Positions 47,442 to 59,926 of a DNA stretch of 64,000 nt are shown one piece after another; within the stretch, counting starts at the first letter, position 1, and each line of letters starts with the position of its first letter. The DNA is from an uncultured Armatimonadales bacterium (GTDB lineage Bacteria > Armatimonadota > Armatimonadia > Armatimonadales > Capsulimonadaceae): contig CAXUNT010000012.1 in NCBI GenBank assembly GCA_964252595.1, positions 4,537 to 68,536 on the forward strand, read 5' to 3'. Below the pieces are notes generated by a model. The model was not told where the DNA came from, did not search any database, and saw only the letters and a list, made by a program, of their open reading frames with translations. The position numbers and the translations under genes are program-made.

Positions 47442-48434
47442 ATGACTTTAGAAGAACAATTCTCGCGGCTGATCCAGATTTTGCAGCTTTTAGACCGGGA
47501 GCCGTTTCACTGGGACGCCGCCGCGCTGGAAGAAAAGTTTGACGTGTCCCGCGCCACGATTGAGCGGGACATCGCGGTTCTGCGGCAGTGGGGCCAAGTC
47601 AAGCGCAAAGACGGCAAGTTCGGCCTAGCGGAAATGAAGTTCCTGCCGACCTCGTTCACGCCGCCCGAAGCCCTCGCCCTGCGGCTCGCCGGGACCAGCT
47701 TCGCGTCCCAAGCCGGGTCGGTGTACAAAGACTCGCTCACGTCCGCGCTCAAAAAAATTGACCTCGTCCTGCCGCGCCGGATCGCCGCTGAAGTGAAAAA
47801 AGCCGGGGAGCGTGTCTCGGTGGGCTTGCCGGTCGTGCGCGATTTTTCCGCCGAAGTCTACCAGAACTTAGAGTCGGCGATTGTCCGGCATCACCCCGTA
47901 GACATTACCTACTTGTCCCGGACGCGCCCGGAGCCGACCAAGCGGCGCGTGGATCCCTATGGCCTGACTTATAAAATTGGCGCGTGGTATCTGGTCGGCT
48001 ACTGCCACTTGCGTCAGGGCATACGCACCTTCGGCCTGGACCGAATCAAGTGGATGCGGGTGCGTGAAGACGCCCGGTTCTCTTATCCCGCCGACTTTGA
48101 CCTCGCGGAGTGGCTGGCAAAGGGCTGGCAGTTGCAAGCCGGCGGCGAGCCGACCGAAGTGGTCGTGCGCTTTGACGCGGAAGTGGCAAGCTGGATCGCG
48201 AACAGCCACTGGCACGCGACCCAGCGGATTGAAAAGCAGCCTGACGGCGGCCTTTTGTTCCGGGTGACCGTGCATGGGTATGAGGAGATGCTTTACTGGG
48301 TGCTGTCGTTCGGCGCACAGGCCGAAGTGCTGGAACCCCTGCCCCTGCGTGCCGCGGTCGCAGAGTCTGCCCGGAAGATGGCAGAGCGTTATGAACGCGT
48401 TCTTTCTAACCTCGCTCAGCCCACCGCAGCATAG
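47442..48434 (+). CDS. HTH-WYL-WCX transcriptional regulator (PafBC/BrxR/CapW-like architecture)
   Basis: N-terminal wHTH (FDVSRATIERDIAVLRQWG) and a WYL core (YKIGAWYLVGYCHLRQGIRTFGLDRI). The start is 1 nt after the upstream stop. Confidence 0.8.
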   Translation: MTLEEQFSRLIQILQLLDREPFHWDAAALEEKFDVSRATIERDIAVLRQWGQVKRKDGKFGLAEMKFLPTSFTPPEALALRLAGTSFASQAGSVYKDSLTSALKKIDLVLPRRIAAEVKKAGERVSVGLPVVRDFSAEVYQNLESAIVRHHPVDITYLSRTRPEPTKRRVDPYGLTYKIGAWYLVGYCHLRQGIRTFGLDRIKWMRVREDARFSYPADFDLAEWLAKGWQLQAGGEPTEVVVRFDAEVASWIANSHWHATQRIEKQPDGGLLFRVTVHGYEEMLYWVLSFGAQAEVLEPLPLRAAVAESARKMAERYERVLSNLAQPTAA

Positions 48435-48496
48435 CGAGAAAAGTTGTCTCTCTGTAGGCCGCCTCGCGTTCTCCGCCGAGACCCCTGTTTCCCTTC

Positions 48497-48529
48497 CTTA
48501 ACATTGCTTTAACATCGCTCTCGTGTAAT
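48497..48529 (+). promoter_or_regulatory. Pho-box-like promoter module, copy A (orphan)
   Basis: CTTAACAT (48497) and TTTAACAT (48508) lie 11 bp apart. TGTAAT (48524-48529) follows 9 nt after the proximal TTAACA. Confidence 0.5.
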
Positions 48530-48755
48530 AACCAGAGTGCACTCTGATTAAGCGGCTCCGGGGACTGCCGTTCGGCATCAGAAGTACTGTCAATCTCATT
48601 CAGATAGCTGCGTCGCGATTGCCCCCACTGTGCTTGTGTCGGGCTGGTCCATGCGAGGCGTTTCTTTCTCGGCGAGCAGGTCAAAGGGCGGGAGACACAA
48701 CAAACGATACCTCAAAAATAGGTACAATCGCGATCATAAAGGGAGATATGACATC

Positions 48756-49511
48756 ATGAAAGCAGAGACCACAGCGCCCGCTGATGCAAACGCCGCGACG
48801 CCCGCCAAGATGCTCCCGTTTGCCCGCGCCCTGGCTCATGACGTGCAGGCGGCGCTACAGCCTCGCTTGCGTCTTCCTGTTGCCCCGCAAACGTTGCTGT
48901 CGGCAGCCGATGCCTCGCACCAGTTCTACGAGCAGACCTGGCGGCATGTCCAAAGCTTAAACGTTGTCCCCCACGCCTGCGCTGCCGGCTGCGCTTATTG
49001 CTGCCACTTGACTGTTGAAGCATCCGCCCCGGAAGTCTTTTTGATCGCCGCTTTTCTCGCGCATCTGCCTGCCGAACGCCTCGAGGCCGTGAAAGCGCGT
49101 GTCCGCCAAACGGCCACCGCTGTGCGCGGCCTGTCGCCGGACGCGCGTGTCCGTGCCGCCGTGCCATGCGCCCTGCTGGAAGAGGGCCGGTGCAGCGTCT
49201 ACGGTGTCCGGCCCCTCGGCTGCCGGTCGTGGAACAGCCGCGACGCCCGCGCCTGCGCTCAGGTGATGGAGCAGGGCGGGGGAGACTTGCGCCCGGTGCA
49301 GGACCAGCGCCCCGGCGGGATCGAGTCGGGGATACGCGCAGGCTTCGCGGCGGCCCTGCAAGAAGCGGGCCTGCCGGAAGACGACACGCGCCGCTGCGAG
49401 CTGAATACGGCGCTTCAGATCGCACTGGAAGACCCCTCGGCGCTTTCCGGCTGGCTCGGCGGAACCGACACGCTTGCCCCCGCGCGAGCCGCAGTGAAAT
49501 ACGCGAAATAG
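48756..49511 (+). CDS. YkgJ/UPF0153-type cysteine-cluster (CxxCxxCC) zinc/iron-chelating domain protein
   Basis: CAAGCAYCCH ... PCALLEEGRCSVYGVRPLGCRSW. ATG at 48756 with an AAGGGAGA RBS. Confidence 0.7.
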   Translation: MKAETTAPADANAATPAKMLPFARALAHDVQAALQPRLRLPVAPQTLLSAADASHQFYEQTWRHVQSLNVVPHACAAGCAYCCHLTVEASAPEVFLIAAFLAHLPAERLEAVKARVRQTATAVRGLSPDARVRAAVPCALLEEGRCSVYGVRPLGCRSWNSRDARACAQVMEQGGGDLRPVQDQRPGGIESGIRAGFAAALQEAGLPEDDTRRCELNTALQIALEDPSALSGWLGGTDTLAPARAAVKYAK

Positions 49512-49539
49512 GAAGTTTTCAAAAAACTTCCTTCGTTTT
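49511..49539 (+). terminator. Rho-independent terminator
   Basis: GGAAGTTTT-CAA-AAAACTTCC (perfect 9-bp stem) followed by TTCGTTTT. Confidence 0.7.
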
Positions 49540-49578
49540 GTAAGCCGCCTCGCGTTCCCCACCAAAACATCGTTTTCC

Positions 49579-49611
49579 CTTAATGCTCTCTTAACATTGC
49601 CCTTGTATAAT
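49579..49611 (+). promoter_or_regulatory. Pho-box-like promoter module, copy B
   Basis: CTTAATGC (49579) and CTTAACAT (49590) lie 11 bp apart. TATAAT (49606-49611) follows 9 nt after the proximal TTAACA. It sits about 45 nt upstream of the PEP-CTERM gene. Confidence 0.55.
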
Positions 49612-49654
49612 TTCGTGGTTGTACCGTGAAATTTTGTTTAAGGAGCTTCTTTCC

Positions 49655-50278
49655 ATGATGACGTCTCAACTTATCTCGCTCCGGCTGGCCTGCGGCGCAG
49701 CCGTCGCCGCTGCCGGCTTGCTGTCCGCCCCCGGCGCGTTTGCACAGTCCCCAACGCCGACTTCCTACTTCTTCCAAGTCGAGAACAATACGTTGTCCGG
49801 TGGCGATCCTGTCTTTTCCGTGATCGACAACCTGACTTTCAGCAATTTGCAGATCAACGAGACCTTCACCGGCGGCTTTACCCAGACGATCCAGCTTGGC
49901 AGCCTCGATACGGCTACGTTTGACACTTTCAGCAATACGTTTTCAACTTCCAGCCCGCTGACATCGGCAGTTCTCACAGGGAACATCGGCTCCGGCCCCG
50001 CCCAAAATGTGAACACGGAAACGACGATTGGCGGCCCGATCACGCCGCAGTATGTTTCTTCCACGTTCTCTGCTTCCTTGTTCGGCCCCGCGCAAACTGG
50101 AACCGCATTGGGTACCTTCAGCCTTTTAGACGGCAATGACAACGTAGTTAATTCGGTCACTATCCTTGCGCCGGCCGCCGTGCCGGAAGCGTCCACCACC
50201 GTCTCGCTTGGCCTTCTGCTGGCCCTCGGCCTCGGTGCTGTGGCTGTGTCCCGTCGCCGCGCCGCTTCTGCAAAATAA
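49655..50278 (+). CDS. Small secreted PEP-CTERM-anchored protein (paralogue of 54075-54761)
   Basis: AAGGAG RBS and a signal peptide. C-terminal PAAVPEASTTVSLGLLLALGLGAVAVSRRRAAS has the PEP-CTERM layout: VPEAS motif, TM helix, Arg cluster. Confidence 0.85.
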   Translation: MMTSQLISLRLACGAAVAAAGLLSAPGAFAQSPTPTSYFFQVENNTLSGGDPVFSVIDNLTFSNLQINETFTGGFTQTIQLGSLDTATFDTFSNTFSTSSPLTSAVLTGNIGSGPAQNVNTETTIGGPITPQYVSSTFSASLFGPAQTGTALGTFSLLDGNDNVVNSVTILAPAAVPEASTTVSLGLLLALGLGAVAVSRRRAASAK

Positions 50279-50309
50279 TTATTTCGTCAACGATGAGGAA
50301 CATCACACC

Positions 50310-53300
50310 ATGAAACATAGCCAAATCAAGGGCAGCGCCGCCGCACTCGGCGCGGCCTTTTTGACCCTCCTCGGCGGGAGCGCTGCACTCGCGCAGGTCA
50401 ACGGCACTAACTGGGGCACCGTCACTGCTCCCGTCTATGGCACGTCTGAAAAGCAGCGGGCCGACGGCACCGCAACCACCGCTTACAGCAGCGCTGAGCT
50501 TTTAGCAGGGCCGAACAAGTCCGGCGAATTGGTCCTGCCGCCCGGCGCGACCCCGACCTACTTTGACGGCGTCCTGCCGAACGGCAAAATCGTTGCCCCC
50601 GCCGGCATTGTCGCCCAAATCGGAATGCACCCGCTCGGCAGCGCTTTAACCCCTGACGGCCAGTACCTTGTCCTTTCCTGCGATGACGAGCGCAACATCA
50701 CCGGCGGCCTGTCTACTCTGCCTTCGCCCACTTCGGCCGGCGGCTCGGTGAACCTGCTCGGCGGCTACTCCGTGACGGTCCTGCGGACTTCAGACATGAC
50801 CGTCGCCGCTCAGACCGCCGTCGGCCCGCTGTTTGTCGGCCTGCAAATCGTGCCGAGCGGCACCGGCTACACGATCTATGCTTCCGGCGGCGGCGACCAG
50901 AACGTCAAAGTGCTGACGTTCACTCCGCCGGCGGGAACGAGCGCCGGCACCTTGACTTCCGGGACGGCGATCAGAATCAACCCGATCACGCCGAACGCCA
51001 CCCCGACTAATTTCACCCAGGTTCCCCTCAAGACCACGAACCCGGCGACGGGCGTTACTACCTACAGCACCCCGACGACCTTCAATGGCGGCGACTTTCC
51101 TGAAAACTCCGGCAGCAGCGGCGTTCCCGGCGGCGGCGGCTTCGGCAGCACGGGCGGCGGCACAGCAGCGTTCCTGACGGCCAACCAGATTTCGTTCCCC
51201 GCCGGCTCGGCGCTTTCCCCCGACGGCAAGTATCTGTATGTCGCCTGCAACGGCGACAACAGTCTGGCCGTGATCGCGACGGCGGCCAACACCACGGCGA
51301 CGCCCAACACAGTTATTAAGCAGATTCCGGTCGGCTTCCTGCCCTACGGCGTCACGGTCAGCCGCGACGGCACCAAAGTCTTGGTTTCCAACTGGGGCGT
51401 TGAGCCGTACACATTTATTGGCGCACCGACGCAGGATGCTTCCGGCAACATCACTGCACTGGCGTCGGTCACGCCGGGTCAGGATACAAGCGGCCTGTTC
51501 TTTGTCCCTGTGACCAGCATGTCCGGCGGCAACCCGAAAACTTCTTCGGTGTCGGTCATCAGCGTTCCCGGTGCAAACCCGGCGAATGCGTCCGTCGTCG
51601 GCGCGGTCTACGAAGGCCAGCCGGGCGGCCCGGATGACCGTATTCTGGTCGGCGAAACCCATCCGTCCGCTATGGCGATTGTCCGGCTCGGCACGCAGGA
51701 AGTGGAATACGTTACCAAGTCCAACTCCGACTCGCTCGGCCTGATCTTGGTTGCCAACAACCGCAAGCTGCCCGACTTCAACTTGTCCCCGCTGAACCTG
51801 AACCTGCCGGACGGTCACCTTGTCCACGGCTCGTACCCGAATGCCCTGGCGGTCTCGCCCGACAACAAGCGGCTGTATGTCGCCGAAGCGGGCCTGGATT
51901 CTGTGGCTGTGCTGGACGTGTCTACCCCGACTTCGCCGAAGCTGCTGGGCCGCATCCCGACAGGCTGGTATCCTTCCGCCTTGTCGGTGAGCGCCGACGG
52001 CCAGACCCTGTACGTCGTCAACGATAAAGGCGTCGCGGAGGACCTGAACCCGAAGACGGATTTTGCCGGCAACCCGACTGCGTCCGGGATCGAGTCGTTC
52101 TCCAACTCAAACTCGATGTTCGGGACGGTGCAGAAAATCAATTTGGCGTCTTTGCCGCTGGACAACACGACAGCACTGAAAAACGACTTCGCGGTCCAGA
52201 ACGCGGCCAATCTTGACACCAGCATTGTCCCAATTGGCGGCGGGGCGTCCGGCAAGATCAAGCACGTCATCTTTATCCTGCATGAAAACAAGACGTTTGA
52301 CTCCATGCTCGGCAACCAGCCGCATTTCGGCGTTTTTGCCAACCAAGATTACAACTTGGCTTCCGGCGCGACTTCTTTTGACCAGGAATATGCCGTCACC
52401 GGCTACACGGGCTTTACGTCCATCGCCCTGAACACGCAGGCGCTGGCCGACACGTTCGCCACCGGCGTCAACTACTACTCGGACGCGGAAGAAAGCGACG
52501 GCGGACATCAATTTTCGGCTTCCGGCACGGCGTCGGACTTCACCGAAAAAACGCTGCTGGTCAAAGGCGGGCGCGGTTTGCTCTCGAACAAGAACATGGA
52601 GCCGGAAGATTACCCGGAAGGCGGCTACATCTTCAACAACGCCGCCCGGAACAACGTCTCGTTCAAGGACTACGGCGCTTTGATCCGCGTCACCGGCACT
52701 GACAACGGCTATGCGAACCCCGCCAAGACCATTGACCCGCCGAGCGGCTTGGCTGGCGTTCCCGTCGCCCCCGAAAGCAGCCCCGTTCTGAACGGCATGA
52801 ACACAGTCGGCCAGCAGAACCCGCCGAACGGCACTGCCACAACGCCCAATACGGCGGTCGCGACCCCCGCCGCCACAAACCAGCCGGCGGAAGTAAACGG
52901 CATCTACAACAGTGCCGCAAACCCCACGGGCAGCGATGTCACTTCACTGACTCAGGGCCTGGGCCAGTCCTACTTCCTGAAGAACCCGATCCTGGCAATT
53001 TTGGGCGAAAGCAACGCCAGCGGCGAGCCGCATTTGGATAAAAACTATCCTGGCTACAACTTCGGCATTTCCGATCAGCGCCGCGCCTTAGAGTTCAACA
53101 AGGACTTTGACCGCATGGCGGCTGCCGGAACGCTGCCGACGTACATCTACTTGTATCAGCCGAACGACCACTCCGGCAATCCGGCGGCGACCTCAAACAT
53201 CGCCATCACCGGCGGCAGCCCTTCCGGCGCGGAGCTGATCGCCGACGGCGACACGGCTTTGGGTATGGTCGTCAAGCACATCATGCAGAGCCAGGCGTAC

Positions 53301-53900
53301 TACAACAGCGCAGACGGCACCGGCTCGGCGATCTTCTTCACCTATGACGATGCCCAGTCGGGCCGCGACCACCTGGACCCACACCGGACGCCGATGATCG
53401 TCATCAGCCCCTATGCCAAGCCCGGCTTCCTGGCGACGCGCCACTACTCAACGGCCTCCATCGTCAAGACCGAAGAACTGCTGATGGGCCTGCCGCCGAA
53501 CAACTACGGCGACCTGCTGGCAACCGATCTGCGCGATATGTTCCAGTCCACCTACAACGGTATCCACCTCAGCGCCGACGGCCTGACCCTCTTGGGGCCG
53601 AACCAAATGTCGCTTGCCAAGCTGCACGCGAAAAGCACTTATGTGGCAACCGCACCGGGCCGCAAAGTGTGGACGTTGTCGCAGAAGCTGGATTCGTCCT
53701 CCCCGGACCAAGATTCCTACCGCCTCAGCATGGTCACCCTGCTGTCCATGCAGGCCGACACGCTGTACCATCAAGCCGCGAAGAAGCACACGCTGAACAC
53801 GGCAGCCTACAAGTCCGAGCAGGCGCGTGTCTACCAGGCTGCGATCAAAGTCGTCAACGGCCCGAAAGTCGGCGGCGATGACGATAAAGACGGCGGCTAG
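50310..53900 (+). CDS. Secreted fusion protein: N-terminal YVTN/YncE-like beta-propeller repeats plus a C-terminal phosphoesterase-family (phospholipase C / AcpA acid-phosphatase type) domain
   Basis: Propeller-like units (SALSPDGKYLYVACNGDNSLAVI, VTVSRDGTKVLVSN, LAVSPDNKRLYVAEAGLDSVAVLD, LSVSADGQTLYVVN). Phosphoesterase start block IKHVIFILHENKTFDSMLG and late blocks FTYDDAQSGRDHLDPHRTPMIVISPY. ATG at 50310 with a GAGGAA RBS. Confidence 0.8.
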   Translation: MKHSQIKGSAAALGAAFLTLLGGSAALAQVNGTNWGTVTAPVYGTSEKQRADGTATTAYSSAELLAGPNKSGELVLPPGATPTYFDGVLPNGKIVAPAGIVAQIGMHPLGSALTPDGQYLVLSCDDERNITGGLSTLPSPTSAGGSVNLLGGYSVTVLRTSDMTVAAQTAVGPLFVGLQIVPSGTGYTIYASGGGDQNVKVLTFTPPAGTSAGTLTSGTAIRINPITPNATPTNFTQVPLKTTNPATGVTTYSTPTTFNGGDFPENSGSSGVPGGGGFGSTGGGTAAFLTANQISFPAGSALSPDGKYLYVACNGDNSLAVIATAANTTATPNTVIKQIPVGFLPYGVTVSRDGTKVLVSNWGVEPYTFIGAPTQDASGNITALASVTPGQDTSGLFFVPVTSMSGGNPKTSSVSVISVPGANPANASVVGAVYEGQPGGPDDRILVGETHPSAMAIVRLGTQEVEYVTKSNSDSLGLILVANNRKLPDFNLSPLNLNLPDGHLVHGSYPNALAVSPDNKRLYVAEAGLDSVAVLDVSTPTSPKLLGRIPTGWYPSALSVSADGQTLYVVNDKGVAEDLNPKTDFAGNPTASGIESFSNSNSMFGTVQKINLASLPLDNTTALKNDFAVQNAANLDTSIVPIGGGASGKIKHVIFILHENKTFDSMLGNQPHFGVFANQDYNLASGATSFDQEYAVTGYTGFTSIALNTQALADTFATGVNYYSDAEESDGGHQFSASGTASDFTEKTLLVKGGRGLLSNKNMEPEDYPEGGYIFNNAARNNVSFKDYGALIRVTGTDNGYANPAKTIDPPSGLAGVPVAPESSPVLNGMNTVGQQNPPNGTATTPNTAVATPAATNQPAEVNGIYNSAANPTGSDVTSLTQGLGQSYFLKNPILAILGESNASGEPHLDKNYPGYNFGISDQRRALEFNKDFDRMAAAGTLPTYIYLYQPNDHSGNPAATSNIAITGGSPSGAELIADGDTALGMVVKHIMQSQAYYNSADGTGSAIFFTYDDAQSGRDHLDPHRTPMIVISPYAKPGFLATRHYSTASIVKTEELLMGLPPNNYGDLLATDLRDMFQSTYNGIHLSADGLTLLGPNQMSLAKLHAKSTYVATAPGRKVWTLSQKLDSSSPDQDSYRLSMVTLLSMQADTLYHQAAKKHTLNTAAYKSEQARVYQAAIKVVNGPKVGGDDDKDGG

Positions 53901-53923
53901 TTTGCCTCCTGCCCGCATCCCCT

Positions 53924-53952
53924 GCCCCGGTTCTGATGAGCCGGGGCTTTTT
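53924..53952 (+). terminator. Rho-independent terminator
   Basis: GCCCCGG-(10 nt)-CCGGGGC followed by TTTTT. Confidence 0.65.
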
Positions 53953-53978
53953 CCTGTCTCCACTCTGATCCGCCGCTT

Positions 53979-54033
53979 CTTAATGTTAACTTAATGTCTT
54001 CTTAACACTGGTTTAACATTGCCCCCGTATAAT
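53979..54033 (+). promoter_or_regulatory. Pho-box-like promoter module, copy C: four direct repeats phased at 11 bp, plus TATAAT
   Basis: CTTAATGT (53979), CTTAATGT (53990), CTTAACAC (54001), TTTAACAT (54012). TATAAT at 54028-54033. Confidence 0.6.
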
Positions 54034-54074
54034 GATCAGGTTGCACCATCCACAAGCATTGAGGAGACACATCC

Positions 54075-54761
54075 ATGAACACCACCCACTTCGCCTTTCG
54101 CTCATTTTTCGGTTTTGCCGTCGCCGGAGCCGCGCTCTGTTCGGCGGGCGGCGCGTCCGCTCAGACCGCAACTCCCTTTTATGCGTTTGTCGTCAGCAAC
54201 CTGACCGAATCCAACGGCAGCCTCGCTTACCCGGTGTATGACTCGGTGACGTTCGCCTCCCCGGAGATCAATGAAGTCTTTGCCGACGGATATACCAATT
54301 CTTTTGCCATCGGCGACGCGAACAACAGTGTGCAGGCAATGGACAAGCAGGCCAGCGCCTTGATGACGTCAGCGCCCGGCACCGGGTTTTCCGATCCGGT
54401 ACATGGAGCGCTGACCTCGGCTACCCTGACCGGCAGCCTTGCTTTTCCGAACTTCGGGCCGGCGAACACTCTTTCCCTTTCTGTTCTGACAGATGCCGCC
54501 GGGGACCAGACCCAGCAGAGCGTTTTCACCCCGTTTTCCGCCTCTTTGTTCGGTCCCGCCTCATCGGGCATCGCCGTCGGCACGTTCAGCCTGATGAACC
54601 TCGGCAGCAGCCAGGGCACGACGGTGGACATTGATGCGACGCCGGTTCCCGCCGCTGTTCCCGAAGCCTCCACCAACGTATCTCTCGGCCTGCTCCTGAT
54701 GCTCGGCCTCGGCGGCACGGTCATCGCCCGCCGCCGGCGCACGGCAAGCGCGGCAAGCTGA
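54075..54761 (+). CDS. Small secreted PEP-CTERM-anchored protein (paralogue of 49655-50278)
   Basis: GAGGAG RBS and a signal peptide. Shared blocks FSASLFGPA..G.A.GTFSL and PAAVPEASTNVSLGLLLMLGLGGTVIARRRRTAS. Confidence 0.85.
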   Translation: MNTTHFAFRSFFGFAVAGAALCSAGGASAQTATPFYAFVVSNLTESNGSLAYPVYDSVTFASPEINEVFADGYTNSFAIGDANNSVQAMDKQASALMTSAPGTGFSDPVHGALTSATLTGSLAFPNFGPANTLSLSVLTDAAGDQTQQSVFTPFSASLFGPASSGIAVGTFSLMNLGSSQGTTVDIDATPVPAAVPEASTNVSLGLLLMLGLGGTVIARRRRTASAAS

Positions 54762-54817
54762 ACAAGCGCCCGGATTATCTCACGATTACCTTCTCACGAT
54801 TCTCTAAGGAGACACCG

Positions 54818-57721
54818 ATGACTACCCTGAGCTTTCTGAAACATCATGCCCTCTTCTGCGCCGCTGCCGCCGCCGCAGTCGCCCTGCTCGGCTCGGCCGC
54901 GACGGCGCAGACCCCGGCGCCGCCGTCCGCCGTGAACCCGCTTGTGACCGGCAAAAGCATCACGCTTCCGCCGCTCGGCTCGACCACCAACGTCGGCAGC
55001 CTGCCCATGAACATGATCGTCACGCCCGACGGCAAGTTCGCGATCTCCACCGACATGGGCTTTCGCGAGTCCCTGCATGTCCTCAGCACTACGACCGGCA
55101 AAGACGCCGGCCCAGCCCTTGTCTTCGGCCCGGATGCCGGCAATACGACGTTCGGCCCGAACGGATTGTATTACGGCCTTGCCGCTCAGTCCAATCCCGA
55201 CGGCAGCTCGACCATTTATGCCTCCGAAGGCACCGTCACTGCGCCGGCAAAATCCGGTCTTCCGAACACCGGTGCGGTGGCCGTGGTCAACGTCAGCCCG
55301 GCGGGAACGCTCACGCTAGCCAAGACGATCACCCTGAAAAATCCCGGCGACTTCCCAGCAGGCGTCGCGCTTGACAGCCGCGGCTACCTGTACGTCGCCA
55401 TCAACGAGAACTATGGCGCAGGCTCCATCGCCAACATCACAACGCCGGGCAGCCTCGCGATCATCAATACCAGCACCGGCGCGGAAGTAGGACGCTACTC
55501 GTTTGCCGAAGCCGCCGGCAACCTCACGCTCGGTGGAGGCAACACCGCGTCGTTTACGCCGTCAAACTTCCCGCTGTCGGTCGCGGCTCTGAGCGACGGC
55601 TCCAAAGTCTATGTGTCTTCCCAGCGCGACAACGCCGTTTATGTCCTCAACTGCGCCAGTCCAGCGGCCCCGACCCAGAGCGCGGCGCTCGCGACCGGGC
55701 AGCATCCGATCTCCCTGCTGCTCAACAAAGCGCAGACCAAGCTGTATGTCGCCAATGCCCATAGCGAAACCGTCTCAGTGGTGAATACCACGAACAACAC
55801 GGTTGCCGCCACAGTCCTGCTCCAGCCGACCGGTACGCGCGGCCTATCCGGCGTCACCCCCACCGGTCTCGGCTTGACCCCGGACGAGAGCCGGCTGTAT
55901 GTGTCCCTCGGCGACATGAACGCCATCGGCGTCGTGGACACGGCCTCTAATGCGCTCATCGGCTACATCCCGGCCGGCTGGTATCCGACCGCCGTGGTCG
56001 CGTCTCCCGTCAAACCTGTGATTTTAGTCGCCAACGCCAAAGGCACGCTGACCCGCTACCCGAACCCCAGCTATCAGCAGTTCTCTTTCGCCAACCAATA
56101 TGACCTGAACATCATTGAAGGCAACGTGGAAACGATCCGCGTTCCCGGCGCATCCCAGCTTGCATCGTACACGCAGATGACGCTGGCGAACAACAAAATT
56201 GCGGCCATCGCCAATCCGGCGCCCAGCCCGCTGGCGGGCATTAATCTCGCCGCGCAGAACGGCATCAAACACGTTTTCTACATCATCAAGGAAAACCGGA
56301 CCTACGATCAGGTGCTGGGCGATCTGCCCCAGGGCAACGGCGACTCCAGCCTGGTGCTGTTTGGGAAAAACGTCACGCCCAACCTGCACGCGCTGGCGTC
56401 CCGGTTTGTCCTGCTGGACAACTTCTACGACTGCGCGGAAGCGTCCGGCGACGGCTGGCCCTGGTCCACCCAGGGGCAGGCGTCCGAGTACGTCATCAAG
56501 AACCTGCCGTACAACTACAGCGGCCGCGGGCGCAATTACGACTTTGAGGGCGCGAACAACAATTATCCCGTCGGCGGCTTTCCGGCCACCGATCCTTACG
56601 GCCAGCCGCTGGTGCCGTCTTCGCCGTTCCGCGACCCCGCCACCGGCGCCGCCCCGGCCATCCATGACGTGTCCGTTGCACCCGGCGGCCATATCTGGGA
56701 CGATGTCCAGGAGAACGTCAATCTCGCCGGCACCGGCCTGACGACAAAGTACCGCAACTACGGCTTCTTTGCGCTCTTTGGCGACAACGTCAACACGCCC
56801 GACAACTACCCGACTGATCTCGGTCTGCAGCCCGCCGGACATGACGGCGGCGGCGTGACGGACATTGACTTCCGCGAGTACGATGCCACTTACCCGGACA
56901 GCGAGGGACCGGCCGCCGTCAGCAGCTTGTACCCCAGAGCCGCCTATGGGCATTACAACGCGCCCAGCCGCTACACAGAATGGAACCGCGAGTTCCAGCA
57001 GATGCTGGCCGCCAAACCCGACGGCAGCACAGTCCCGGCGTTTGAGACCGTGCGATTCATGCACGACCACACGCAGGGCGTCTCGGTCGTCACGGACTCG
57101 ACAGGCAACTACATCCGGTCGAACCACCTGCCGACGGCGGAAGTCGCCGACAACGACTATGGCATCGGCCAGTTCGTGCAGGCGATCAGCAGCAGCCCGA
57201 TCTGGAACTCGTCGGCAATTTTTGTCATTGAAGACGACGCGCAGGACGGCCCGGACCATGTGGACTGTCACCGGTCCACGTGCTATGTCATCAGCCCGTT
57301 CATCAAGAAATCATCGGTAGACCACACGTTCTACAACACCGACAGCGTCTTGAAGACGATGGAGCTTCTCTTGAACATCCCGCCGATGAACCAGTACGAT
57401 GCCACGGCCAACCCAATCCTGGACTTCGACACTACGGCCAGCAACACCGGCGTCTACACGGCTACCCAGCCTGCCGCCTCCATCCTGAGCGGCCTTGCTC
57501 CTGCTCCGACCTCCAGCAGCCGTGCGTTGCTGCCGCTGGAAACACTCTGCGCCACAATGGACTTTGTCCACCCCGACAGCGCTCCGGCCGCCGTGCTGAA
57601 CGAAGTCATCTGGAAAAGCGTCAAAGGCATGCACTCCAAGATGCCTGCGATCCGCCATGCCACTAGCCTGCTCGGCAAGACGCCGGCGGCTCACACTGCC
57701 CGCAAAGACAGCGACGAATAA
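54818..57721 (+). CDS. Secreted beta-propeller plus phosphoesterase-family fusion protein (paralogue of 50310-53900)
   Basis: AAGGAG RBS and a signal peptide. Propeller units (VTPDGKFAIS, LSDGSKVYVSSQRDNAVYVLN, LNKAQTKLYVANAHSETVSVVN, LTPDESRLYVSLGDMNAIGVVD). IKHVFYIIKENRTYDQVLGDL and FVIEDDAQDGPDHVDCHRSTCYVISPF. Confidence 0.8.
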   Translation: MTTLSFLKHHALFCAAAAAAVALLGSAATAQTPAPPSAVNPLVTGKSITLPPLGSTTNVGSLPMNMIVTPDGKFAISTDMGFRESLHVLSTTTGKDAGPALVFGPDAGNTTFGPNGLYYGLAAQSNPDGSSTIYASEGTVTAPAKSGLPNTGAVAVVNVSPAGTLTLAKTITLKNPGDFPAGVALDSRGYLYVAINENYGAGSIANITTPGSLAIINTSTGAEVGRYSFAEAAGNLTLGGGNTASFTPSNFPLSVAALSDGSKVYVSSQRDNAVYVLNCASPAAPTQSAALATGQHPISLLLNKAQTKLYVANAHSETVSVVNTTNNTVAATVLLQPTGTRGLSGVTPTGLGLTPDESRLYVSLGDMNAIGVVDTASNALIGYIPAGWYPTAVVASPVKPVILVANAKGTLTRYPNPSYQQFSFANQYDLNIIEGNVETIRVPGASQLASYTQMTLANNKIAAIANPAPSPLAGINLAAQNGIKHVFYIIKENRTYDQVLGDLPQGNGDSSLVLFGKNVTPNLHALASRFVLLDNFYDCAEASGDGWPWSTQGQASEYVIKNLPYNYSGRGRNYDFEGANNNYPVGGFPATDPYGQPLVPSSPFRDPATGAAPAIHDVSVAPGGHIWDDVQENVNLAGTGLTTKYRNYGFFALFGDNVNTPDNYPTDLGLQPAGHDGGGVTDIDFREYDATYPDSEGPAAVSSLYPRAAYGHYNAPSRYTEWNREFQQMLAAKPDGSTVPAFETVRFMHDHTQGVSVVTDSTGNYIRSNHLPTAEVADNDYGIGQFVQAISSSPIWNSSAIFVIEDDAQDGPDHVDCHRSTCYVISPFIKKSSVDHTFYNTDSVLKTMELLLNIPPMNQYDATANPILDFDTTASNTGVYTATQPAASILSGLAPAPTSSSRALLPLETLCATMDFVHPDSAPAAVLNEVIWKSVKGMHSKMPAIRHATSLLGKTPAAHTARKDSDE

Positions 57722-57780
57722 TCGCTGCCTGGCTTGAAGTATAACGGCGGCGAGTAGCGCCGGCCGCCTGAAATAGAAGA

Positions 57781-57814
57781 CCCCGGTTCCAAGCAGTGGA
57801 ACCGGGGCTTTTTT
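57781..57814 (+). terminator. Rho-independent terminator
   Basis: CCCCGGTTCC-AAGCAGT-GGAACCGGGG followed by CTTTTTT. Confidence 0.8.
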
Positions 57815-57952
57815 CGGCTGATGAAATACAAACAAATTACTTTGTGAAATAAAGCAACAAAGGCGGGTATAATCCCAGCAGAAATATCCGCAGAGGTATG
57901 ATTTGTGATGCCCCCCTCCCCCGACCGAATCAACAAGAAAGAGACGCCCCGT

Positions 57953-59926
57953 ATGGACCAACCCGACACAAGCGCGACGCCGCTATTGACAATGTCGTTA
58001 TTGGACGGGATCAACAGCCCCGCCGACCTTAAAGGGCTTTCCCCGGAGCAGCTCAAGACGCTTGCTCAGGAAATCCGCGTGTATTTGACCCAGACCGTCG
58101 CCAAAACCGGCGGGCATCTCGCGCCTTCGCTCGGCGTCGTCGAGCTGACTTTGGCCCTGCACAAAGTCTACAACCTGCCGAAAGATAAGCTGATCTGGGA
58201 TGTCGGGCATCAAGGCTATGTTCACAAGATACTGACGGGGCGCCGCGACCAGCTCCCGACGATCCGGCAGCACGGCGGCCTGTCGGGCTTTCTGCGGATT
58301 GATGAGTCCCCATTTGATTTGTACGGCGCGGGCCACGCATCCACGTCCATCTCGGCGGCGATGGGGTTTGCCAAAGCCCGCGACTTCCGGGGCGCGAAGC
58401 ATTCCGTGCTGGCCCTGATCGGCGACGGTGCACTCACCGGCGGCATGGCATTAGAGGGCCTGAACAATGCCGCCGATGACGGCACGGACATTACGATTGT
58501 TTTGAACGACAACGAGATGTCCATTGCCGAGAACGTCGGGGCGCTGGCGACGTATCTTGCAAAGCTCCGCATGGAGCCGCTATATCAGGCGGGCGAAAAC
58601 ACGGCCAAGCGTATGATCGCCGGGATGCCGGTCGGCTCCGAAATCATCAAGAAAGCGGCCAAGGCGGCCAAGCACACGGCGACCCATTTTGCGACCCCAG
58701 CCCACAAGGGCCTGCTGTTTGAGGAAATGGGCTTCACCTACATCGGTCCGATTGACGGCCACAATCTAGAAAATCTGGTCAATGTGTTCCAGCATGTCAA
58801 GCGCTTGAAAGGCCCGGTCCTGGTCCATGTGCTGACCGTGAAAGGCAAAGGCATTCCGTATGCCGAAGCGAACTCACGGACTTATCACGGCCTCGGCAAG
58901 TTCAGCCCCGACGACGGCAAGACCGAGGCGAAGCTCGCCGGCGTCAGCTTCACGGATGCATTTGTCGAGACTTTGAACGATCTGGCGGAGACCGACGACA
59001 AAATTGTTGGCATCACCGCCGCCATGCCCGACGGCACGGGCCTCAACAAGTTCGCCAAGCTCCACCCCGAACGCTTTTTTGATGTCGGCATCGCCGAGCA
59101 GCACGCGGTCGTCTTCGCCGCCGGCCTGGCCGCCGAAGGCTTCAAGCCTGTGGCTGCCATTTATTCCACGTTTTTACAACGCGCCTACGACCCCATTATT
59201 CACGACGTTGCCTTGCAGCGCCTGCCCGTCCGGTTCTTTTTAGATCGAGGCGGACTCGTTGGGGACGACGGCGGGACCCACCACGGCGTTTTTGACCTCG
59301 CTTACCTCCGCTGCATTCCCAACTTGGTCCTGATGGCGCCAAAAGACACCGACGAGATGCGGGCCATGACCCGTTTTGCCCTGAACTATGACGCCGGTCC
59401 GATTGCCGTGCGCTACCCGCGGGGCGGGCAGGACGCGCTCGGCGAGCAGCCGCGTCCCATCGAGATGGGCCGGGCCGAAACCCTGCGCCGGGGCGGCGAC
59501 ACCGCGCTGATCGGCCTCGGCGCAGGCGTCAAGATCGCGCTCGACGCCGCCGACATCCTCGCGGGGCAGGGCGTGGAAGCGACCGTCATCAATGCCCGCT
59601 TCTGCAAGCCCTTGGATTCCGAGGCCATTCTCAGCGCTGCCCGCCGCTGCGGCTCGGTCGTGACCATCGAAGACGGCGTCGCGTCTGGCGGCTTCGGCTC
59701 GGCCGTTTTAGAACTGCTGTCCGAGGCTGGCCTGACCGTTCCGGTCTCCGTCATCGGCCTGCCCGACCATTTCATTGAACACGGCACGATTCCTGTCCTG
59801 CGAGATTTAGCGGGCTTGACCGCCGAAGAAACTGCTCGCAAGGCGCTGGCGCAGATGCCTCACCATCCTGCACTTGTCAGCGGCACGGACAGCACATTTG
59901 AAAAGCTGCCGGCGGGAGTGCGCTGA
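57953..59926 (+). CDS. dxs: 1-deoxy-D-xylulose-5-phosphate synthase
   Basis: LLDGINSPADLKGLS..QL..LAQEIR, GHQGYVHKILTGR, GDGALTGGMALEGLN, and a transketolase-like C-terminus. The start is ambiguous: the ATG at 57953, or the ATG at 57992, which matches typical Dxs N-termini. TATAAT at 57869-57874. Confidence 0.9.
   Translation: MDQPDTSATPLLTMSLLDGINSPADLKGLSPEQLKTLAQEIRVYLTQTVAKTGGHLAPSLGVVELTLALHKVYNLPKDKLIWDVGHQGYVHKILTGRRDQLPTIRQHGGLSGFLRIDESPFDLYGAGHASTSISAAMGFAKARDFRGAKHSVLALIGDGALTGGMALEGLNNAADDGTDITIVLNDNEMSIAENVGALATYLAKLRMEPLYQAGENTAKRMIAGMPVGSEIIKKAAKAAKHTATHFATPAHKGLLFEEMGFTYIGPIDGHNLENLVNVFQHVKRLKGPVLVHVLTVKGKGIPYAEANSRTYHGLGKFSPDDGKTEAKLAGVSFTDAFVETLNDLAETDDKIVGITAAMPDGTGLNKFAKLHPERFFDVGIAEQHAVVFAAGLAAEGFKPVAAIYSTFLQRAYDPIIHDVALQRLPVRFFLDRGGLVGDDGGTHHGVFDLAYLRCIPNLVLMAPKDTDEMRAMTRFALNYDAGPIAVRYPRGGQDALGEQPRPIEMGRAETLRRGGDTALIGLGAGVKIALDAADILAGQGVEATVINARFCKPLDSEAILSAARRCGSVVTIEDGVASGGFGSAVLELLSEAGLTVPVSVIGLPDHFIEHGTIPVLRDLAGLTAEETARKALAQMPHHPALVSGTDSTFEKLPAGVR

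Follow-up and report, generated by a model that had tools for sequence, protein, structure and literature searches.

A combination of TTAAC-containing octamers and a -10-like hexamer that is found three times in the window (the whole stretch of 64,000 nt that was analysed, from an uncultured bacterium of the family Capsulimonadaceae in the phylum Armatimonadota) raises the question of what these octamers are, and of how the three intergenic stretches that carry them, copies A, B and C, are related to one another. The original prediction regarded them as one promoter module that had been copied as a whole. The analysis presented here, in which this genome (4.54 Mb, 60% G+C, 181 contigs) is designated G000 and its relatives bear other G numbers, leads to a reading that we consider likely as a whole, namely that the octamers are Pho boxes, that copies B and C are native and conserved promoters, and that copy A is a secondary copy which came from a rearrangement in this lineage.

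All of the features concerned lie on the plus strand unless otherwise stated. Copy A (48439-48547), which aligns to copy B, appears to be a secondary B-type Pho-box module and is specific to this genome among those searched, contains the boxes CTTAACAT-TGC-TTTAACAT (48497-48515, with octamers at 48497-48504 and 48508-48515 and a period of 11 bp), followed by the -10-like hexamer TGTAAT (48524-48529), which has a G at position -11. Copy B (49523-49631), the predicted native Pho-box promoter of a PEP-CTERM/propeller-phosphoesterase operon, referred to as operon 1, contains the boxes CTTAATGC-TCT-CTTAACAT (49579-49597, with octamers at 49579-49586 and 49590-49597) and the -10 sequence TATAAT (49606-49611). 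Copy C (53979-54046), the predicted Pho promoter of the paralogous operon 2, has four boxes, against two each in A and B, and shares the TATAAT hexamer with copy B. Upon re-reading of the window, the strings named earlier for copies A and B were all located where they had been placed, and the 11-bp phasing of the octamer pairs was confirmed for both copies from the positions. The distance from octamer to -10 is indeed the same in A, B and C, but it amounts to 8 intervening nucleotides, with a start offset of 9, and not to the 9-nt gap that had been described.

Moreover, the 14-mer GCCGCCTCGCGTTC said to be common to A and B is present at 48458 and 49544, and in both copies it extends to the 19-mer TGTA(G/A)GCCGCCTCGCGTTC, which has no further occurrence in the 4.5-Mb genome when up to 3 mismatches are allowed. 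The shared upstream block TTTCCCTT is likewise present in both copies, at 48488 and 49574, with an offset to the boxes that differs by 4 nt between them. The element proposed near +1 (AGTGCAC in A, GTTGTACC in B and GTTGCACC in C) is real and also occurs in the orthologous B and C promoters of relatives; it is not typical of the other 18 Pho-type promoters in the genome. Copies A and B have the same orientation, and the distance between them is 1086 bp.

With regard to the nature of the octamers, a search of the genome for YTTAAY-N5-YTTAAY returned 31 pairs with the 11-bp period, in about 21 loci, compared to 0-5 pairs at other periods between 6 and 21 bp and 6 in a reversed control, and the extended pattern YTTAAYRY-N3-YTTAAYRY was matched 5 times in the window and not once in 100 shuffles. 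The genes that come first after these loci include pstS (PBP_like_2, E 4e-39) and a PhoU_div/DUF47 gene, as well as several genes for PEP-CTERM secreted proteins, genes for prepilin-type (DUF1559) proteins and a third beta-propeller-Phosphoesterase gene, so that three genes of the latter kind are preceded by the motif in this genome. The consensus octamer CTTAACAT spans 8 bp and is followed by a 3-bp linker, and the proximal octamer ends 8 nt before the -10; the loci thus present two or more 8-bp repeats in direct orientation, 3 bp apart, placed near a -10 where a -35 element would be expected, and no -35/-10 pair was detected by a consensus scan. The offset of 16 nt from octamer start to -10 is shared by nine loci, among them pstS and copies A, B and C, and a second class of Pho-type loci has its boxes shifted upstream by one turn of the helix, to 27-28 nt. 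Additionally, the boxes and the -10 of pstS are almost base for base alike in eight relatives with varying flanks, and conservation at the orthologous promoters of relatives holds for B, C and pstS, and not for A. Given the preference for the 11-bp period, the pstS, PhoU and phosphoesterase context, the shared offset, the conservation at pstS and the published architecture of such sites, the TTAAC octamers are, as read from sequence, Pho boxes of the PhoB/SphR type.

As such, they would be docking sites for a PhoB/SphR-type response regulator and take the place of the -35 element, and under phosphate scarcity the regulator seated on the boxes would activate transcription. The best PhoB-like regulator in the genome, an OmpR-family protein encoded at C47:22140-22841, scored 229.8 bits against a TIGR02154 cut-off of 296.2, and no boxes were found upstream of the top five regulator candidates, C47:22140 included.

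The architecture described above can be compared with that of known Pho boxes. The PhoB sites of Escherichia coli consist of 8-bp repeats with a 3-bp linker, located 10 bp upstream of the -10, and the consensus reported for SphR of Synechocystis is CTTAACCT (PMC1906773). The boxes of Synechocystis sp. PCC 6803 are, as in the present genome, 8-bp direct repeats in tandem that are joined by a 3-bp linker, their core CTTAACCT is nearly identical to CTTAACAT, and in both organisms the boxes lie upstream of phosphate-uptake and phosphatase genes. They differ in that at least three boxes have been reported for SphR sites whereas copies A and B have two, and in that the boxes described here are predicted ones and belong to a different phylum, Armatimonadota. 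The PhoB promoters of E. coli also share the two 8-bp repeats, the 11-bp period and the replacement of the -35, with a gap to the -10 of about 10 bp compared to 8 nt here and with a repeat of the CTGTCAT type instead of CTTAACAT. No paper was found in the literature combining the term Pho box with Armatimonadetes. In Bacillus subtilis, the TT(A/T/C)ACA repeats of PhoP place a TTAACA-like hexamer about every 11 bp, much like the boxes described here, whereas at least four repeats are typically required and both the organism and the regulator are different. The cyanobacterial type of Pho box, with its CTTAAC repeats, would extend to Armatimonadota, a phylum for which almost nothing is known on regulation, and a list of about 20 promoters of the putative regulon is now available for a Capsulimonadaceae genome; none of these findings challenges current understanding.

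Copies B and C have a well-defined genomic setting. Each of them is found ahead of a gene for a small PEP-CTERM protein followed by one for a secreted protein with a beta-propeller and a Phosphoesterase domain (PF04185), which in operon 1 (49655-53900) encode a secreted PEP-CTERM protein of 207 aa and its propeller partner. The two operons are paralogous, with identities of 41% and about 28-35%, and the likeness between B and C, which starts with the boxes (49579 and 54001), reaches as far as 49707 and 54135, inside the 5' ends of the two PEP-CTERM genes. Copy B occupies the orthologous place in G001, G020, G021, G005, G014, G004 and G022. Comparison across the genus shows B and C to be native, conserved promoters, predicted as such, of two paralogous operons.

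The relationship between A and B is of a different kind. The local alignment of 48439-48529 with 49523-49611 has 65 identical columns out of 96 (68%) and a score of 34, compared to 10.95±1.64, with a maximum of 18, for shuffled sequences. When only the 60 nt upstream of the boxes are considered, A and B score 22.5, the highest value of the 210 pairwise comparisons between Pho-type promoters of this genome, for which the mean is 7.1±1.9; the A-B alignment beyond the cores thus exceeds both chance and other promoters of the regulon, as is to be expected of paralogous promoter modules. The likeness is therefore not confined to the TTAAC cores, since the 16-mer discussed below and its 19-mer extension are shared as well. 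The earlier proposal that the whole module had been copied holds in so far as A and B resemble each other beyond the boxes, but a uniform copy it is not, as the identity is concentrated in two islands and the remainder is about 45% identical. By part, 15/16 positions are identical in the 16-mer, 12/16 in the boxes, 5/6 in the -10 and 34/75 (45%) in all else, and against this background the retention in A has P≈6e-5 for the 16-mer and P≈0.016 for the box positions. Beyond the boxes, most of the signal comes from the 16-mer and the sequence that flanks it, and the homology starts inside the descending arm of a terminator-like hairpin (49510-49532).

In the downstream half, the affinities of copy A are less clear. 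A resembles C from the boxes to about +13 (48493-48542 compared to 53998-54046), and between the boxes and +20 it is identical to B at 32/53 positions and to C at 37/53. A tree computed from the modules of B-type and C-type did not place A, with support values of 50/60. The origin of A from a B-type module, judged from these alignments, is secure for the upstream half only. That the three copies form one family of promoter modules, as originally predicted, is borne out, but A does not rank with B and C as a third promoter of the same standing: it appears to be a lineage-specific secondary copy at the junction of an inversion.

The 16-mer (TGTAGGCCGCCTCGCG, 48453-48468, in A; TGTAAGCCGCCTCGCG, 49539-49554, in B) is the most conspicuous part of the upstream half. 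In copy B of G000 and in orthologous or related promoters of G001, G008 and G022 its exact form precedes the distal box by exactly 24 nt, and it is present with 2 mismatches in G005 and G014, where these 24 nt are filled by two more Pho boxes; it has been lost in G021 and G004. A search of 185,579 species genomes for the composite pattern of 16-mer and boxes gave no more than three further records, all of them Capsulimonadaceae metagenome-assembled genomes, and on that account the 16-mer is, at sequence level, a conserved and genus-restricted part of the B-type module. We infer that it is a candidate accessory cis-element. Several other identities were considered for it and set aside. As a dispersed or global motif it failed because, in the relatives, matches with 1 mismatch were as frequent as those of a control and lay within genes. 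With regard to a CRP/FNR-type site, the dyad symmetry is weak and TGTAA-N6-TCRCG is not enriched, with 8 matches compared to 7 and 5 when the spacing is changed to adjacent values and 13 in a reversed control. The WYL regulator encoded nearby has no support from linkage as a partner, since its gene lies 75 kb (G008) and 715 kb (G022) away from the module.

The position of copy A is best understood from the gene order of the region. In the three closest relatives, G001, G020 and G021, rlmN-NYN-WYL is followed by a bidirectional terminator, by the block PROP2-PEP2-C-PROP1-PEP1-B-CxxCxxCC on the opposite strand, and by the divergent pair dxs-TPR; in G022, dxs is divergent from B. In G000, the block from CxxCxxCC to PROP2 is reversed with respect to both rlmN-NYN-WYL and dxs-TPR. 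Because the whole block runs the opposite way compared to the relatives, sequence comparison shows an inversion of ~9.3 kb in this lineage, which carries the CxxCxxCC gene, operon 1 and operon 2. On the right, the junction is clean: the terminator hairpin (57781-57815) at this end of the inverted segment, which in relatives directly follows the WYL stop codon, now comes after PROP2 and abuts the dxs promoter, whose -10 TATAAT (57868-57873) precedes the functional dxs gene (start 57953), now co-directional with the cassettes. The left junction is composite, and consists of the WYL stop codon and GAGAAAAG, copy A up to about 48547, a relic of dxs in antisense orientation and the own -10 of the CxxCxxCC gene, TACAAT.

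The relic (48548-48713, minus strand, 166 nt) comprises the 5' UTR and roughly the first 33 codons of dxs. Its local alignment with the 5' end of the functional gene (57893-58056) has a score of 51 compared to a null of 10.2±1.5 and an identity of 67%, and it has its own substitutions, indels and stop codons. Where G000 has the relic, the relatives have an intact, divergent dxs. The functional dxs of G000 is 93-94% identical to that of the relatives, which gives no sign of a replacement of the gene. Block A has a rearrangement junction at either end, and the ancestral breakpoints have an inverted GAAAA/TTTTC microhomology.

The CxxCxxCC gene (PF03692; 48756-49511) lies between copies A and B and is closed by the hairpin at 49510-49532. 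Its orthologues were found in seven same-genus genomes, with copy B downstream in all of them, and a box pair upstream of the gene is absent in 7/7 of these relatives. Since copy A is absent in the relatives, is located at the left inversion junction and is next to the dxs relic, it can be considered derived, in all likelihood as a secondary copy, about 105 bp long, of the B-type module and not as a product of evolution in place.

Whether copy A is an active promoter is a separate question. Given the G at -11 and a shift of 4 nt in the spacing, its promoter activity is doubtful and at best it would seem to be a weak promoter. Of the 9 promoters that have the 16-nt offset, it alone does not have an A at -11, a base that is treated as critical in sigma-70 biochemistry, and it has a 4-nt CTTC insertion compared to all B-type orthologues, which places the 16-mer 28 nt from the distal box instead of the 24 nt found in copy B. 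Its boxes and its 16-mer are intact, and for this reason copy A probably still binds its factors; the 15/16 identity of the 16-mer and the 12/16 identity of the boxes, compared to a background of 45%, argue for continuing selection on A and against a pure relic.

A stronger interpretation, which we regard as possible and rather unlikely, is that A is a working and selected Pho-dependent promoter that rewires the CxxCxxCC gene into the phosphate-starvation response, with an mRNA leader of about 225 nt that would run antisense through the dxs relic. This would agree with the perfect consensus of both boxes, the preservation of the 16-mer against the background, and the fact that there is no terminator-like site between copy A and the CxxCxxCC gene. 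Furthermore, the gene looks leaderless in the relatives, with a -10 seven nt before the ATG, and in G000 a 20-nt insertion has given it a leader with a Shine-Dalgarno sequence, which would be needed if transcripts start upstream. The new leader would, however, be accounted for just as well if the gene were transcribed from its own promoter; CxxCxxCC retains a -10 (TACAAT, 48723-48728) that is conserved in relatives, and no relative has the gene under Pho boxes; the TGTAAT hexamer, unique among nine equally spaced Pho promoters, and the departure from an otherwise invariant 24-nt spacing also speak against it. Directly downstream of copy A there is the dxs relic and not a gene. A search of Rfam with 48300-49800 gave nothing credible, the best match being SprD with 23 bits compared to a threshold of 100. 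The leader that follows A (48530-48760) was also considered as a decayed PEP-CTERM gene, which was dismissed because its likeness to the sequence downstream of B and C is not above that of shuffles, and a match of TTAAGCGGCTCC to the ribosome-binding region of B was dropped as this stretch is part of the dxs 5' relic.

Less probable still, and to be seen as conjecture, is that the 16-mer is the operator of a second regulator which gates the induction of the secreted phosphoesterase operon by phosphate starvation, with A as a live platform under dual control. With a transcription start 7 nt past the -10, the 16-mer would have its centre near -71.5, and the rearrangement would have put the CxxCxxCC metal-cluster protein, together with read-out transcription from rlmN-NYN-WYL, under this dual control. 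The conserved 16-bp element, with its fixed spacing, could serve a promoter under phosphate control as a second input.

Returning to the derivation of A from a B-type module, three alternatives have to be weighed. The first is convergence, in which A and B would each have gained the 16-mer and the Pho boxes independently and with no copying, and which could account for an A-B identity of only 45% outside the 16-mer, the boxes and the -10. This appears highly improbable, since the 16-mer is far too long to have arisen twice by chance and is found nowhere else in the genome, the parts share their order, their orientation and a near-identical spacing, and both ends of block A fall on junctions of the rearrangement. 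Moreover, when the orthologous B modules of different species are compared, they too consist of conserved islands with decayed sequence around them. No more credible is a small mobile element, for instance a MITE-like promoter cassette of ~90 bp that inserts upstream of genes: two occurrences in one orientation and at a distance of 1086 bp might suggest it, but the genome has no more than these two copies, 40 relatives have no matching DNA except for the orthologous promoters, copy B is syntenic across the genus, and neither terminal inverted repeats nor target duplications were seen on reading. An artefact of assembly at the junction of copy A, conceivable in a genome fragmented into 181 contigs, can be put aside with similar confidence, as an assembler would not create or join duplicated pieces that have diverged to about 67-68% identity, one of which, the relic, carries substitutions, indels and stops of its own.

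For the origin of copy A by rearrangement, which we prefer, two routes can be proposed. In the first, a unit of ~1.09 kb, from dxs codon 33 to position +20 of B, would have been duplicated in tandem, which would yield the junction between A and the relic in one step and fits the distance of 1086 bp between A and B; an inversion at the GAAAA/TTTTC microhomology and the deletion of one copy of CxxCxxCC would have followed. The second route would consist of one or more templated insertions during a replication-based rearrangement. The identity between relic and dxs (67%) is close to that between A and B (68%), which is consistent with both duplicates having come from one episode. A DNA search in 40 relatives for the source of copy A returned only weak matches to orthologous promoters, an exact 25-mer from copy A was not found in metagenome contigs, and no rearrangement intermediate was found.

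Some of these features have parallels in described rearrangements. As in inversions with duplicated breakpoint sequence, the 5' end of dxs is present at both ends of the segment in inverted orientation, and as in inversions by staggered breaks or template switching, extra and locally templated sequence, here copy A, is present at one junction, with a short inverted microhomology (GAAAA/TTTTC) at the ancestral breakpoints. Staggered breaks alone do not account for copy A, and the mechanism is deduced from a single derived genome. The identifiable junctions document a rearrangement that has placed a copy of a regulated promoter before an unrelated gene, a possible case of regulatory rewiring by structural change. 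Just where copy A meets the dxs relic there is a perfect 14-bp palindrome, CAGAGTGCACTCTG (48533-48546), which matches itself on the minus strand and includes the element near +1 of copy A.

The block comprising the PF03692 (CxxCxxCC) gene and two operons, each encoding a PEP-CTERM protein followed by a beta-propeller and Phosphoesterase protein (CxxCxxCC-PEP1-PROP1-PEP2-PROP2; window 48443-57815, ~9.3 kb), is inverted with respect to the three closest relatives and to G022, another member of the Capsulimonadaceae. The ancestral breakpoints carry a short inverted microhomology, GAAAA/TTTTC, and a duplicated piece of the dxs 5' region is present at both ends of the inverted block. The terminator found 3' of the WYL gene in relatives is gone from window 48435-48442, having been removed by the inversion. 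Transcripts of the rlmN-NYN-WYL genes may now be reading through copy A, the Pho-box module ahead of the dxs relic, into the CxxCxxCC gene.

With regard to the start of the CxxCxxCC gene, its ATG in the relatives lies only 7 nt past the -10, and the gene therefore appears to be leaderless in these genomes. Compared with them, window 48729-48758 carries a 20-nt insertion, CATAAAGGGAGATATGACAT, which gives the gene a leader containing a Shine-Dalgarno sequence, GGGAG, as well as a 3-codon mini-ORF that overlaps the ATG. The inserted sequence looks like a second copy of the start region.

In promoters resembling copy B, the module ahead of operon 1, a conserved 16-mer lies 24 nt upstream of the proximal box pair. 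Since two further Pho boxes fill this spacer in G005 and G014 (L005 and L006), the two-box B promoter of the window's genome, G000, looks like a former four-box promoter with decayed distal boxes. The 16-mer is also present without mismatch in a B-type module of G008 (L054, G008:C1:2819000-2830000). This module stands ahead of a PEP2-like gene, after which come two genes of the PROP2-like kind (identity 56% and 76%), in a different cassette arrangement that lacks the CxxCxxCC gene.

In copy B, both the -10 and the +1 are overlapped by an 11-pair hairpin, G-U pairs included (AATTTCGTGGT-TG-TACCGTGAAATT, then TTGTTT; window 49609-49633), with the GTTGTACC element of the original prediction forming its apex. 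In RNA, the hairpin would arise solely on read-through transcripts from upstream.

G000 also holds a second class of Pho-type promoters, with loci on C2, C3, C17, C102 and C135. Their nearly invariant AAAA-YTTAATCTTYT-CTTAACATAA pair is placed 27-28 nt before the -10, that is, one extra helical turn, and the genes that follow encode mostly prepilin-type (DUF1559) and PEP-CTERM secreted proteins.
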